Positions 34,341-39,547 of a stretch of 64,000 nucleotides of DNA are shown piece by piece. The position numbers and the translations under genes were made by a program. The notes under the pieces are model-generated. The model had not been told where the DNA came from and searched no databases. It saw only the letters and a program-made list of their open reading frames with translations. The stretch lies in NCBI RefSeq assembly GCF_029227855.1, contig NZ_CP074356.1; one strand, 5' to 3'. Position 1 is the first letter of the stretch. Each line of letters opens with the position of its first letter. The DNA comes from Escherichia coli. Lineage in GTDB: Bacteria; Pseudomonadota; Gammaproteobacteria; Enterobacterales; Enterobacteriaceae.

Positions 34341-35072
34341 GTGGCTTATTACAGCATTGGTGATGTTGCTGAACGTTGCGGGATTAATCCTGTCACTCTC
34401 CGGGCCTGGCAACGCCGCTACGGTTTGTTAAAACCACAGCGCAGTGAAGGCGGACACCGACTCTTTGATGAAGAAGACATACAACGCATCGAAGAGATCA
34501 AGCGTTGGATAAGTAATGGCGTCCCTGTAAGCAAAGTTAAAGCATTACTGGAAACCACCAGCCAGGATACGGAAGATGACTGGAGCCGCCTGCAAGAAGA
34601 GATGATGTCAATTCTTCGTATGGCTAATCCTGCCAAACTACGCGCGAGAATTATTTCACTGGGTCGAGAGTACCCAGTAGATCAATTGATTAATCATGTT
34701 TACCTTCCTGTTCGCCAGCGTCTCGTGCTTGATCACAACACCTCCCGCATTATGAGCAGTATGTTTGACGGCGCATTAATTGAATACGCAGCAGCCTCGC
34801 TTTTCGAAATGCGCCGTAAGCCCGGTAAAGAAGCCATTCTGATGGCGTGGAATGTTGAAGAGAGAGCACGATTGTGGCTGGAAGCATGGCGTTTATCATT
34901 GTCAGGATGGCACATTTCTGTTCTTGCTGATCCCATTGAAGCGCCGCGCCCGGAACTGTTCCCAACGCAAACATTGATTGTCTGGACAGGCATGGCACCA
35001 ACGAGAAGGCAAAACGAACTTTTACAACACTGGGGTGAGCAAGGTTATAAAGTCATCTTTCATGCCCCCTAA
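34341..35072 (+). CDS. bluR: MerR-family repressor BluR (YcgE)
   Basis: 243 aa; N-terminal MerR HTH ([44 protein letters not shown]). Confidence 0.88.
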
Positions 35073-35292
35073 TTTCACCTTTATCCCGCCCCTTAGACAG
35101 AATCTTATAATCTGAACCCACAACAGCGTTTGTACCGGAGCTGGTCCGTTGCAAAATGCTCACCGGGAGAATTCAGGTAATCCCCCTTTCACACTTTGTA
35201 CATATCACAGCCAAAGGACAGACCAGATTGAAGTGGTAAAACCGATCGTGCACACTACGCAGTCTCACAACTAACAAGAGGTTATTATCCTG

Positions 35293-35697
35293 ATGGATCA
35301 GGTTGTTGTTTTTCAAAAGATGTTTGAGCAAGTGAGAAAAGAGCAAAACTTCTCCTGGTTTTATTCAGAATTAAAACATTACCGTATTGCACATTACATT
35401 TATTATCTGGCTACGGATAACATCAGAATTATTACTCACGATGACACGGTTTTGTTATTAAGAGGAACCAGGAACCTGTTAAAAGTTAGTACGACCAAGA
35501 ACCCTGCTAAAATAAAAGAGGCCGCATTGCTTCATATTTGCGGAAAATCAACATTTCGGGAATACTGTTCAACACTGGCAGACGCGGGCGTTTTCCGGTG
35601 GGTTACTGATGTTAATCATAACAAACGCAGTTACTACGCCATTGATAATACGCTTTTATATATTGAAGATGTAGAAAATAATAAACCATTAATCTAG
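35293..35697 (+). CDS. ycgX: YcgX (DUF1398-type protein)
   Basis: 134-aa ORF at the conserved position next to bluR. Confidence 0.72.
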   Translation: MDQVVVFQKMFEQVRKEQNFSWFYSELKHYRIAHYIYYLATDNIRIITHDDTVLLLRGTRNLLKVSTTKNPAKIKEAALLHICGKSTFREYCSTLADAGVFRWVTDVNHNKRSYYAIDNTLLYIEDVENNKPLI

Positions 35698-35959
35698 CTA
35701 AAGTTGGATGCTTAAAAAATGCTTCATAATTCAGTAAGGCATTAGCATAATGGAAATAAAAGTGCAGAGACTATTCATATGGATGAGTAATACTATCTTT
35801 TTATTGCCACCCATAAATAATCACCAGATCAATACTATCAACTTGATATTTGAAATGTGATCACTTGACTTTTGATACGTTATTTTATAGCGGTTAACAT
35901 ATTTATAAAAAACAACGGGCGTATAACACGCCCGTTTCAATATTTAACACATGTAGAGA

Positions 35960-37210
35960 TTACATGTTCTTGATGATCGCATCACCAAACTCTGAACATT
36001 TCAGCAGTTTAGCGCCATCCATCAGACGCTCGAAGTCATAGGTTACAGTCTTGGCGTTGATTGCGCCTTCCATACCTTTAACAATCAGGTCTGCGGCTTC
36101 AGTCCAGCCCATATGGCGCAGCATCATCTCAGCGGAGAGAATAATAGAGCCTGGGTTTACTTTGTCCTGACCGGCATATTTCGGCGCAGTACCGTGGGTG
36201 GCTTCAAACAGGGCGCATTCGTCACCGATGTTTGCGCCTGGGGCGATACCGATACCGCCGACCTGTGCAGCCAGAGCGTCAGAAATGTAGTCACCGTTCA
36301 GGTTCATACAGGCGATAACATCATATTCAGCCGGACGCAGCAGGATCTGTTGCAGGAATGCGTCAGCAATCACGTCTTTAATGACGATCTCTTTGCCGGT
36401 ATTCGGGTTTTTAACTTTCATCCACGGGCCGCCGTCGATCAGTTCACCGCCAAACTCTTCACGCGCCAGCTGGTAGCCCCAGTCTTTAAACGCGCCTTCG
36501 GTGAACTTCATGATGTTGCCTTTGTGCACCAGGGTCACAGAGTCACGATCGTTAGCAATTGCGTATTCGATCGCTGCACGAACCAGACGTTTGGTGCCTT
36601 CTTCCGAACACGGCTTAATACCGATACCGCAATGTTCCGGGAAGCGAATTTTCTTCACGCCCATCTCTTCACGCAGGAATTTAATCACTTTCTCGGCGTC
36701 GGCAGAGTCAGCTTTCCATTCGATACCCGCATAAATGTCTTCCGAGTTTTCACGGAAGATAACCATATCGGTCAGTTCAGGATGTTTAACCGGGCTTGGG
36801 GTGCCCTGATAGTAACGTACCGGACGCAGGCAGATGTAGAGATCCAGTTCCTGGCGCAGGGCAACGTTCAGAGAACGAATACCGCCACCAACCGGAGTGG
36901 TCAGAGGGCCTTTAATGGCAACGCGATATTCACGAATCAGATCAAGGGTTTCAGCAGGCAGCCAGACATCCTGACCATAAACCTGTGTGGATTTTTCACC
37001 GGTGTAAATTTCCATCCAGGAGATTTTACGCTCGCCTTTATAGGCTTTCTCGACTGCAGCGTCGACCACTTTCAGCATGGCTGGGGTTACATCTACACCG
37101 ATTCCATCACCTTCAATGTAAGGGATAATCGGATTTTCAGGAACGTTGAGTTTGCCGTTTTGCAGGGTGATCTTCTTGCCTTGTGCCGGAACAACTACTT
37201 TACTTTCCAT
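35960..37210 (-). CDS. icd: NADP-dependent isocitrate dehydrogenase
   Basis: 416-aa [48 protein letters not shown]...; 3' end abuts ycgX with no prophage. Confidence 0.96.
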
Positions 37211-37381
37211 TCACCTCTCCTTCGAGCGCTACTGGTTTGCTCGTCTGCCACCACGTTGCATATGCGTTTGCGTCCTGCGATACGGATGCATTAGAGCAAT
37301 TTTTTGTTAATGATTTGTAATTGGCTTGTCAATACTACCCTATTGTTTGCCGTCATGAAAGATGCGCGTTATTAGGCTATA

Positions 37382-37432
37382 ATGCGGCAATTCATAATCT
37401 CTGAAAATACCATGCAAAAAACTTCTTTTAGA
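37382..37432 (+). pseudogene. displaced original 5' end of rluE (first ~17 codons, [17 protein letters not shown]) separated from the gene body by a ~1.5 kb insert
   Basis: ATG 171 bp from the divergent icd start encodes [16 protein letters not shown], which I recall as the K-12 RluE N-terminus; after the 11-bp repeat cttcttttaga the frame runs into unrelated sequence and stops. Confidence 0.6.
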
Positions 37433-37671
37433 CCAAAGACAGTATTTTTCAGACCTTCAAATAAGGCATTAAATATCAATAAGTTATACCGGTTTTTAAG
37501 CAATAAAAAAAACCACCAGAGATAACTAACAGGATGCTATTTGGTCAAAATTTGACATTACTCGACTCAGCGACTATCTCACTTTGAGCACTATTGGGAA
37601 AATTATCAAAAGTCATGGTTGAAGCGACAAGCAACGAGTAAATTATGGCATCCCCCCTTTTTGAGGTTCAC

Positions 37672-37758
37672 ATGAAACGCTTTGCACTGATAGCTGTGAA
37701 ACTCGTTGCCTTTACTGGTTCTGCATCTGCTGCAACCGAAGAAATCAACTTCAAGTAA
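37672..37758 (+). CDS. possible 28-aa small protein with signal-peptide-like/hydrophobic N-terminus (MKRFALIAVKLVAFTGSASAATEEINFK)
   Basis: Not in the ORF track (too short); strong RBS gagg 5 nt before the ATG; perfect TTGACA -35-like hexamer at 37552..37557 upstream. Confidence 0.3.
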   Translation: MKRFALIAVKLVAFTGSASAATEEINFK

Positions 37759-37791
37759 CAGAAACACTATATAACAATGGAGTGTTGACAA

Positions 37792-38241
37792 ATGGATACT
37801 ACCGAAGAACGCAATGGAACATATTTCTACAGAGGACACCCTAACCTGTCCAAAATAGAACTACTCAACGTCATATTCCTTGAAGAATTCTGTAAGGAAT
37901 TGGGGATTGATTCGGTATCAGGTGCAGCAATCTTATCTGGTCAACCGTGGCTGGGTACAAGAGCGAAGCCGCAAGGGGCAACCCTGGGAACAAGTGTTGT
38001 CTCAAAGTATGCGCGTATACTGATGAGAGATGCACGCATGCCTTTTGGTATTTCTGTTCATACACCAGTGGGTGTAAGGATGCAGAAATCTAATAAGCTT
38101 GCTGCAATTATCGCTCGTTGGGTCCCGTGGATTGGTTGGGCTTCACTGTCGATGAGTCTTTACAGGCTTTCGACTCGTACCCAGGAAAAATACAATCTGA
38201 TTGCCAAACCTCAAGACCGTATTAAGTGGACTTCCTTCTAA
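37792..38241 (+). CDS. hypothetical 149-aa protein, cargo gene A of the rluE insert (candidate toxin-like partner)
   Basis: ORF with ggag RBS-like motif upstream; stop codon overlaps the start of the next ORF (TAATG); no recognisable family from sequence alone. Confidence 0.6.
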   Translation: MDTTEERNGTYFYRGHPNLSKIELLNVIFLEEFCKELGIDSVSGAAILSGQPWLGTRAKPQGATLGTSVVSKYARILMRDARMPFGISVHTPVGVRMQKSNKLAAIIARWVPWIGWASLSMSLYRLSTRTQEKYNLIAKPQDRIKWTSF

Positions 38242-38576
38242 TGGCGACAACAATCACAGACGAAGTTTTAGCACTGTTCCGTGATGAGATTCCAGGTTAT
38301 CAGGATGACCACGGGAAGGAAATTCCGTTAGAACTGGACTCTGATTTGTTCGACTATCCACGAGATGATTTAGAGGACGCTATACGGAAATACAAAGAGA
38401 GGTTTGGGATTAACCTGGATAATCTGGACTGGTCTTTGTACCTTCCATGGGAGTCTGCACCATTGCTTCAACGATGGTTCAAGCTCAAGCGGGAAGAGGT
38501 AGAAACAACACGTTTACCGTTAACTGTACGGATGTTTGCAGAATCAGCAGAAGCGGGAAAATGGCTGTATCAGTAG
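38241..38576 (+). CDS. hypothetical acidic 111-aa protein, cargo gene B of the rluE insert (ACP-like/DUF1493-like by recollection; candidate immunity/antitoxin-like partner)
   Basis: ATG overlaps the stop of gene A by 1 nt (translational coupling); acidic composition, no signal peptide, motif LELDSDLFDYPRDDLEDAI reminiscent of the ACP fold. Confidence 0.6.
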   Translation: MATTITDEVLALFRDEIPGYQDDHGKEIPLELDSDLFDYPRDDLEDAIRKYKERFGINLDNLDWSLYLPWESAPLLQRWFKLKREEVETTRLPLTVRMFAESAEAGKWLYQ

Positions 38577-38908
38577 AATAAAAAAGAAGGCTGCGATGCC
38601 CCTCTTATTACTGCTGATGATGGTAGTGGTAAAGCATCATCCTGAACTTGAACAGTGAAGTGCTGTCACCCATCAGTAATACAGAAACACTATTTTTCAT
38701 ACCAGTATTTATTCAATTCATCAATGTAAAATGTGTTCATTGGGCCATATTTCTCACCATGCAGCCACACAACCGCTGCTCACTAACCCAGGTATTGATG
38801 AAACCGCGCTGAAGAGCCTGAACCCTGAACCTCTAACGAGTACCTTAAAAGTCCAATGCAATCCGACACTGTGCTACCCTCTGCGTATAGCTCTATTTGG
38901 AATTTACC

Positions 38909-39547
38909 ATGAAATACTTTAGCGATTCTAAATCTTCTTTTAGAAAAAAACAGGTTAGTCGACTAAACTCGCAACACTCCACTAAGCGTAAACCTGAAAA
39001 TCAGCCCACGCGCGTGATCCTGTTCAATAAACCCTACGATGTTCTTCCGCAGTTCACCGATGAAGCCGGACGCAAAACATTAAAAGAATTCATCCCGGTT
39101 CAGGGCGTTTATGCAGCAGGTCGTCTTGACCGCGATAGCGAAGGGTTACTGGTGCTGACCAATAACGGCGCGTTGCAGGCGCGTTTAACCCAGCCGGGTA
39201 AACGCACCGGAAAAATCTATTATGTGCAGGTGGAAGGTATTCCCACACAAGACGCACTTGAAGCCTTGCGCAATGGCGTAACCTTAAATGATGGCCCTAC
39301 CCTGCCCGCAGGCGTAGAGCTGGTTGACGAACCCGCGTGGTTATGGCCGCGGAATCCACCAATTCGTGAACGCAAAAGTATTCCCACCAGCTGGCTGAAG
39401 ATCACCTTATATGAAGGACGTAATCGCCAGGTGCGCCGCATGACCGCCCATGTTGGTTTCCCCACGCTGCGACTGATTCGCTATGCGATGGGTGATTACT
39501 CTTTGGATAATCTTGCCAACGGCGAATGGCGAGAAGCGACAGATTAA
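38909..39547 (+). CDS. rluE: 23S rRNA pseudouridine(2457) synthase RluE with variant N-terminus
   Basis: From ...[61 protein letters not shown] onward matches RluE as recalled; first ~27 residues ([28 protein letters not shown]) are a diverged version of the displaced fragment; start could also be the TTG at 38897. Confidence 0.85.

Follow-up and report, generated by a model that had tools for sequence, protein, structure and literature searches.

The systems closest to the locus reported here are operons in which an effector gene and its immunity gene are linked to hcp, which encodes the type VI secretion system's (T6SS) tube protein. They include Hcp-Tae4-Tai4 in Salmonella and Enterobacter and the Hcp1-dependent Tse2/Tsi2 pair in P. 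aeruginosa. Effectors smaller than about 20 kDa can ride inside the lumen of Hcp, and an immunity protein is located at the site where its toxin acts. Ssp6 of Serratia marcescens is an ion-selective pore-forming T6SS effector that is toxic from the periplasm, and its immunity protein, Sip6, has two transmembrane helices and is located in the outer membrane (PMC6889166). Here we analyzed a stretch of 64,000 nucleotides of the Escherichia coli chromosome (contig NZ_CP074356.1; the whole stretch is hereafter called the window), in which two small overlapping genes, named A and B, lie between icd and rluE. Comparative sequence analysis indicates that the pair is probably a polymorphic-toxin effector-immunity cassette, composed of a DUF8209/STM2901 toxin and a DUF1493 immunity protein, that stands alone in this genome. 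This reading is preferred because the A domain takes a C-terminal position in Rhs proteins, because A has a conserved DUF1493 partner and is linked to hcp, and because A and B diversify together. Active T6SS delivery of the E. coli copy itself is much less certain.

The gene pair and its relatives

Gene A (37792..38241, + strand; ATG at 37792 and TAA at 38239-38241) encodes a basic protein of 149 amino acids (aa) that represents the predicted toxin (effector) domain, and gene B (38241..38576, + strand; ATG at 38241 and TAG at 38574-38576) encodes an acidic 111-aa protein, the predicted cytoplasmic immunity protein. As read from the sequence, the stop codon of A and the start codon of B share one base within TAATG (38239..38243, + strand), an overlap that suggests translational coupling. 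An alternative GTG start at 38226 would extend B to 116 aa and the overlap to 16 nt, and the predicted coupling holds with either start. The end-to-start overlap is kept among relatives: of 47 homologous pairs, 23 have a DUF1493 match that begins on the last base of the A stop codon. The RefSeq annotation of E. coli contains these two coding sequences too, A under the name 'STM2901 family protein' and B under the name 'DUF1493 family protein'. Comparison of both genes with their orthologues gave proportions of nonsynonymous differences (pN) of 0.08-0.19 and of synonymous differences (pS) of 0.54-0.83, with dN/dS ratios of 0.05-0.14 where measurable, pointing to purifying selection on A as well as on B. 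Because both products match family hidden Markov models and pN is far below pS, A and B are regarded as genuine genes and not as chance open reading frames (ORFs).

The gene A product (16.8 kDa, isoelectric point 10.0) matched the NCBIfam model NF045926 (STM2901 family) with 154.1 bits and an E value of 2.2e-45, against a curated cut-off of 110 bits, residues 8-142 covering the full model. Its homologues carry the precomputed Pfam assignment PF26636, that is, DUF8209. Salmonella STM2901 is listed as pigA, of unknown function, and lies next to Salmonella pathogenicity island 1. A preliminary description, made from the sequence of the window, had found no nameable family for gene A and had considered a small hydrolase on the strength of Cys34 and His80. 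The family assignment supersedes the first statement, and the second does not survive inspection of the protein: position 80 is taken by Asp, the protein's histidines being H16 and H90; position 90 varies (H/L/P/K/Q/N) even among close homologues, Cys34 is replaced in distant members, and the A family as a whole has no invariant Asp, Glu, His or Cys. Truncated E. coli variants of A, 99-136 aa in length, were also observed (P0047, P0052, P0053 and P0059).

No relative of gene A was found among solved structures, by sequence or by fold, and a search of AFDB50 returned only members of its own family. A Pfam scan of 29 diverse DUF8209 members, with a Pfam set that did not contain PF26636, gave no significant match. 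Because there is no detectable relative among solved structures and there are no classical catalytic residues, the mode of killing by A may be new.

A profile built from 23 homologues of gene A was scored exhaustively against 1.84 billion representative proteins and recovered 395 relatives. Among the best 147 of these 395, the A domain formed the extreme C-terminus of every one of the 33 proteins with 200 aa or more. The RHS-associated core (TIGR03696) was found upstream of the A domain in 16 of the 20 long proteins tested, some of which contain YD repeats too, and other long A-domain proteins have lipoprotein-type N-termini. Judged by these arrangements, a C-terminal A domain behind an RHS core has the layout that is standard for polymorphic-toxin warheads. 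The window's own gene A product, 149 aa long, stands free and contains no Rhs sequence.

Two further features were noted. The N-terminus MDTTEE.NGTYFY (window 37792-37830) is near-invariant in free-standing enterobacterial A proteins and absent from Rhs-fused forms, and its first five residues may serve in delivery or in binding to Hcp. In five Bacteroidota-like Rhs proteins (P0189, P0214, P0259, P0289 and P0227), a Gly-rich, glycine-zipper-like hydrophobic linker of ~100-190 aa lies between the RHS core and the DUF8209 domain, and may be a translocation segment.

The gene B product has an isoelectric point of 4.5, 24 Asp and Glu residues, a grand average of hydropathy of -0.60 and no hydrophobic segment, the best 19-residue Kyte-Doolittle mean being 0.34; its description as small and strongly acidic was thus accurate. 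It matched Pfam DUF1493 (PF07377) with an E value of 1.3e-29, residues 4-110 aligning with model positions 3-107 of 108, and its structure model superposed best on acyl carrier proteins (ACPs) and peptidyl carrier proteins (PCPs). A wide DUF1493 profile, which includes Bacteroidota-like and Burkholderiales-like members, matched solved ACPs at an E value of 1.3e-5 and E. coli AcpP at 19.9 bits; the match of a narrow DUF1493 profile to AcpP was not significant. One DUF1493 member matched Pfam PP-binding (PF00550) at an E value of 1.9e-4. The preliminary description had tentatively assigned B to a DUF1493-type, ACP-like family restricted to enterobacteria; the family and its ACP-like character stand, and the restriction fails on the members named above.

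The profile alignment places Arg41 of B at the position of the phosphopantetheine-bearing serine of ACPs. In 21 diverse members this position is occupied by R/G/A/P/E/V/T, with serine in one of the 21. The acidic motif earlier singled out as ACP-like, LELDSDL, therefore has to be given up, since the serine of its LDSDL core is not the equivalent of the ACP serine, which aligns with R41. At its C-terminus B carries an additional conserved segment, PLTvrMFaESAeAGKWLYD. From these alignments, B is predicted to have a degenerate ACP fold that is extended C-terminally by conserved sequence; because the phosphopantetheine serine is replaced by Arg41, a carrier function for B was ruled out.

The association of A with B was followed through 49 Enterobacterales loci, sampled as one genome per species, in which the loci of different species are not independent events. 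A was followed by B on the same strand in all 48 evaluable loci, including the window, the 49th locus being cut off after A. The partnership extends beyond this order. In two unrelated Bacteroidota-like contigs, Rhs-DUF8209 genes are directly followed by tandem DUF1493 copies, two in L003 (5647-6365) and three in L005 (5316-6443), the first of which overlaps or abuts the toxin stop codon. A DUF1493 gene also lies directly 3' of a non-Rhs fusion (L067) and 3' of free-standing A homologues in Burkholderiales-like contigs. As separate observations, the DUF1493 copies behind Rhs-DUF8209 in L005 and L003 are far more ACP-like (DLGxDGDD) than the enterobacterial ones; two Mangrovibacter loci (L036 and L037) contain extra DUF1493 copies and second A-B pairs; and in P0057 and P0065, PF26636 and PF07377 occur in one polypeptide, which may represent A-B fusions or frameshift or gene-call artefacts.

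Linkage to hcp was frequent in the same set. A full-length hcp lies directly upstream of A in 26 of the 49 loci, ending 12-17 nt before A, hcp remnants take this place in three further loci, and in eight more hcp is found elsewhere within 6 kb, so that 37/49 loci have hcp or a remnant within this distance. The hcp-A-B order recurs in a Burkholderiales-like genome (L066), where A, as in many Enterobacterales, is a free-standing protein of 15-17 kDa, RefSeq annotates Hcp adjacent to the pair on a Rahnella megaplasmid, and one locus (L060) carries an orphan Tai4 immunity gene 3' of the A-B pair. Hcp proteins shared a median pairwise identity of 85%, A proteins one of 66% and B proteins one of 61%. 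Among the 72 pairs of loci whose Hcp proteins are at least 90% identical, the A proteins are less than 55% identical in 30, and across loci the pairwise identity of A correlated with that of B at r = 0.93 and with that of Hcp at r = 0.70. Conservation of Hcp with joint diversification of A and B is the pattern expected of a fixed delivery gene with a swappable effector-immunity cassette.

Comparative genomics thus gives strong support to the earlier suggestion of a co-expressed toxin-immunity module on acquired DNA. The one-nucleotide TAATG overlap of two same-strand ORFs had been placed exactly, the surrounding DNA, supposed to be horizontally acquired and free of mobility genes, is an insert relative to K-12 with low GC content and no mobility gene, and the neighborhood comparison that had been recommended for homologues uncovered the proposed Rhs and T6SS associations (hcp in 26/49 loci and the RHS core in 16/20 proteins).

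In the mechanism we propose, A would be an antibacterial toxin injected into neighboring cells, where its site of action would be the cytoplasm or the membrane's inner face. Where A is free-standing, a T6SS would carry it as cargo within its Hcp tube. The soluble, acidic, ACP-shaped B would shield the producer and its kin by one-to-one binding of the basic A, and the stop/start overlap would ensure that B is made whenever A is. The stand-alone E. coli cassette would either use an Hcp encoded elsewhere in the genome or persist mainly through the immunity given by B.

Both families have names and are uncharacterized, and a survey paper on Hcp cargo does not cover the A family. The A-B family is widespread, and other bacteria join it to their machinery for contact-dependent killing, namely Rhs proteins and Hcp. 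The reading proposed here would give STM2901/DUF8209, including Salmonella pigA, and DUF1493, both so far labeled as of unknown function, a concrete and testable toxin or immunity role across Enterobacterales, Burkholderiales-like and Bacteroidota-like bacteria. An immunity domain shaped like an ACP would be unusual and may hint at the target of the toxin.

Counterevidence and alternative readings

Several observations weigh against an effector-immunity role, in addition to the non-independence of the species loci. There is no hcp, vgrG, PAAR or Rhs gene beside the E. coli pair or anywhere in the window, no hcp remnant was detected upstream of A in E. coli even with permissive settings, and no E. 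coli genome with the hcp-A-B arrangement was found at the sensitivity of blastn. Elsewhere, 12 of the 49 loci have no hcp within 6 kb. A-B copies occur on 153 plasmid records, and the Erwinia phage EtG (L064; NC_047833, 3501-4261) carries a 32%-identical STM2901-like gene with a DUF1493 gene as an opposite-strand moron between the tail-fiber assembly and tail-sheath genes of this P2-like phage. The hcp-free loci, the plasmid copies and the phage moron also fit an addiction or defense role. Downstream of the Rhs-DUF8209 gene of one locus (L004) there is no clear DUF1493 gene, the narrow profile being not significant and the wide one scoring 6.4 bits. The structure models of A and B are of moderate confidence, with predicted local distance difference test (pLDDT) values of 66 and 68, and full-text literature searches yielded no functional study (toxicity, binding or secretion) of either family.

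The alternative that survives best is a variant of the effector-immunity reading in which A is a membrane-inserting, depolarizing pore-former like Ssp6, Tse4 or Tme. We hold it to be a possibility of some weight, though not the one to expect. Two Gly/Ala-rich segments of the A family, near residues 38-52 and 103-125, are moderately hydrophobic, with 19-residue Kyte-Doolittle means of 1.0-2.1 that exceed 1.6 in several members. The lack of any invariant Asp, Glu, His or Cys would suit a pore, and several family members in the AlphaFold DB are auto-named 'membrane protein'. The two segments of E. coli A, however, reach 1.24 and 0.95, which is under the usual transmembrane threshold, and the most conserved element of the family is not a hydrophobic helix but a polar loop (TRxK..G..GTS..S). 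The family-wide invariants (G50, T67, S68, S71, R109 and P112, plus K59, G38 and G115) form a polar Gly/Thr/Ser/Lys/Arg loop beside two moderately hydrophobic helices. B, moreover, is soluble and acidic and contains no hydrophobic segment, whereas the immunity protein of Ssp6 is membrane-anchored (PMC6889166). Because of the polar loop residues and the soluble, cytoplasmic predicted immunity protein, we favor an A that acts in the cytoplasm, as an enzyme or by binding a target, and consider a classical pore former acting from the periplasm less likely.

Less probable, and in our view unlikely, is an intracellular role of the stand-alone pair, not as a secreted weapon but as a toxin-antitoxin (TA), addiction or abortive-infection (anti-phage) module, in which stress or phage infection would free A from B. 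Translationally coupled genes on acquired DNA with no secretion gene nearby, as in E. coli, would suit such a module, as would the plasmid copies and the EtG moron; the interval between tail-fiber assembly and sheath genes of P2-like phages houses accessory or exclusion genes. Both proteins also match PHROG families of unknown function. A defense-like role had already been raised as an alternative in the preliminary description, and the single phage-moron context keeps it alive, but PADLOC gave no match for A or B. The order of the genes also argues against it, since toxin-first is the less common arrangement in type II TA systems. Pfam searches with B and 21 relatives returned only DUF1493 and the weak PP-binding match, and no DNA-binding domain was recognized. 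The dominant contexts of the family are hcp and Rhs. Finally, one phage record that matches the insert (ON470584, 99% identical) is a prophage-boundary artefact, namely an e14-like prophage record running into host icd-rluE DNA, and a phage origin of the insert was ruled out.

An extension of the effector-immunity reading that we rate as a long shot is that DUF8209, as a toxin of a fold and activity not seen before, targets ACP or an ACP-dependent step of lipid synthesis, with DUF1493 proteins acting as decoy ACPs that soak up the basic toxin. Under such a scheme, B and its relatives would be carrier domains that kept an acidic binding face and lost the modifiable serine. If true, this would make DUF8209 the first family of T6SS/Rhs effectors directed against ACP, and DUF1493 the first family of immunity proteins based on mimicry of ACP as the target.

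Least plausible by far is a non-toxic pair with a small accessory metabolic or structural function, such as a membrane protein served by its own carrier-type protein, for which the ACP-like fold of B could be cited, but the phosphopantetheine serine is missing in 20/21 diverse DUF1493 members, the A domain tips Rhs C-termini and adjoins hcp, no biosynthetic genes co-occur with the A domain, and extra tandem DUF1493 copies lie behind Rhs toxins, as is typical for immunity genes.

The insert and the rewritten start of rluE

The gene order in the window runs from icd (35960-37210, - strand) through the insert to rluE-nudJ-mnmA-hflD (+ strand). By blastn comparison with E. coli K-12 and by GC profile, the cassette lies on an insert of ~1.5 kb (37433..38929) placed within the 5' end of a K-12-type rluE. 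Homology to K-12 ends at 37432 and restarts at 38930, the flanking K-12 segments overlapping by 15 nt. The insert is lower in GC content (0.34-0.48) than its flanks (0.50-0.55) and has no mobility gene, and Rfam, promoter and terminator scans of it gave nothing above chance except the retained promoter-like site of rluE. Of 5426 complete E. coli genomes, 374 (~7%) contain the whole 1686-bp icd-rluE spacer. For this species the cassette is a variable marker that may affect strain competition in the gut. The insertion site is common only to Escherichia sp. E1V33, and in other genera just the two coding sequences match.

At the left junction, alignment with K-12 identifies a remnant of the K-12-type rluE start comprising the first 17 codons, MRQFIISENTMQKTSFR (37382..37432, + strand). 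The promoter-like site of the old rluE (37355-37383) is upstream of this remnant, and the cassette sits 3' of that site. In the left part of the split start (37355-37525), the 17 retained codons now begin a 47-aa ORF. At the right junction (38909-38990), rluE (38909..39547, + strand) has a replaced N-terminus that comes from the right end of the insert, as seen in the identical RefSeq locus and by comparison with K-12 RluE. Insertion of the cassette has thus rewritten the start of rluE. Just inside this junction rluE is 94.9% identical to K-12, and the icd side is 99.1% identical.

Both junctions are marked by an imperfect 20-nt direct repeat, AAA(A/T)CTTCTTTTAGA, with the core CTTCTTTTAGA. 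A repeat search located the left copy, AAAACTTCTTTTAGA, at 37418..37437 (85% identity over 20 nt), and together with the K-12 comparison it located the right copy, AAATCTTCTTTTAGA, at 38930..38949. The repeat may stem from duplication of the target or may have served as microhomology for illegitimate recombination.

Between the left junction and gene A, a 28-codon ORF (37673-37759, + strand), MKRFALIAVKLVAFTGSASAATEEINFK*, starts with a signal-peptide-like sequence and stops almost immediately. A longer version of it is annotated as a hypothetical protein in a phage record, and it may be a remnant of a secreted-protein gene brought by the insert. Outside the insert, icd is uninterrupted by the e14 prophage, and its 3' side leads directly into ymgL/ycgX-like and bluR genes (34341-37210). 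K-12 differs from the window at this point, with e14 starting within icd.

Comparison with known systems

The pair resembles Hcp-cargo operons in that A is small (16.8 kDa) and encoded directly after hcp in 26/49 related loci, in that an overlapping predicted immunity gene follows, and in that a conserved Hcp is combined with a variable effector-immunity cassette. With Tse2/Tsi2 it shares an immunity protein that, for B by prediction, is soluble and cytoplasmic. It departs from these operons in that the E. coli copy has no adjoining hcp, that A has no sequence or fold similarity to any characterized effector, and that the pair is known here from its sequence. The likeness to Rhs toxins and their RhsI immunity proteins lies in the position of DUF8209 after the RHS core at the extreme C-terminus and of DUF1493 immediately downstream, sometimes in tandem; unlike Rhs C-terminal toxins, A of the window is free-standing, with its own start codon and with the N-terminus MDTTEE.NGTYFY that is missing in Rhs-fused forms.

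Like Ssp6/Sip6, A and B represent a small effector family of Enterobacteriaceae that is found sometimes beside an orphan hcp and sometimes far from T6SS genes. B differs from Sip6 in being soluble and acidic and in having no transmembrane helix, the two systems being set apart by their descriptions and not by the Ssp6 sequence. By fold superposition and wide-profile matches B resembles ACPs and PCPs (PF00550), from which it is distinguished by Arg in place of the phosphopantetheine serine and by the extra conserved C-terminal segment. With type II TA systems the pair has in common two small overlapping genes with basic and acidic products that occur on plasmids, a phage and genomic islets, and it differs from them in that the toxin gene comes first, that B has no DNA-binding domain, and that the family is mainly tied to Rhs and hcp.

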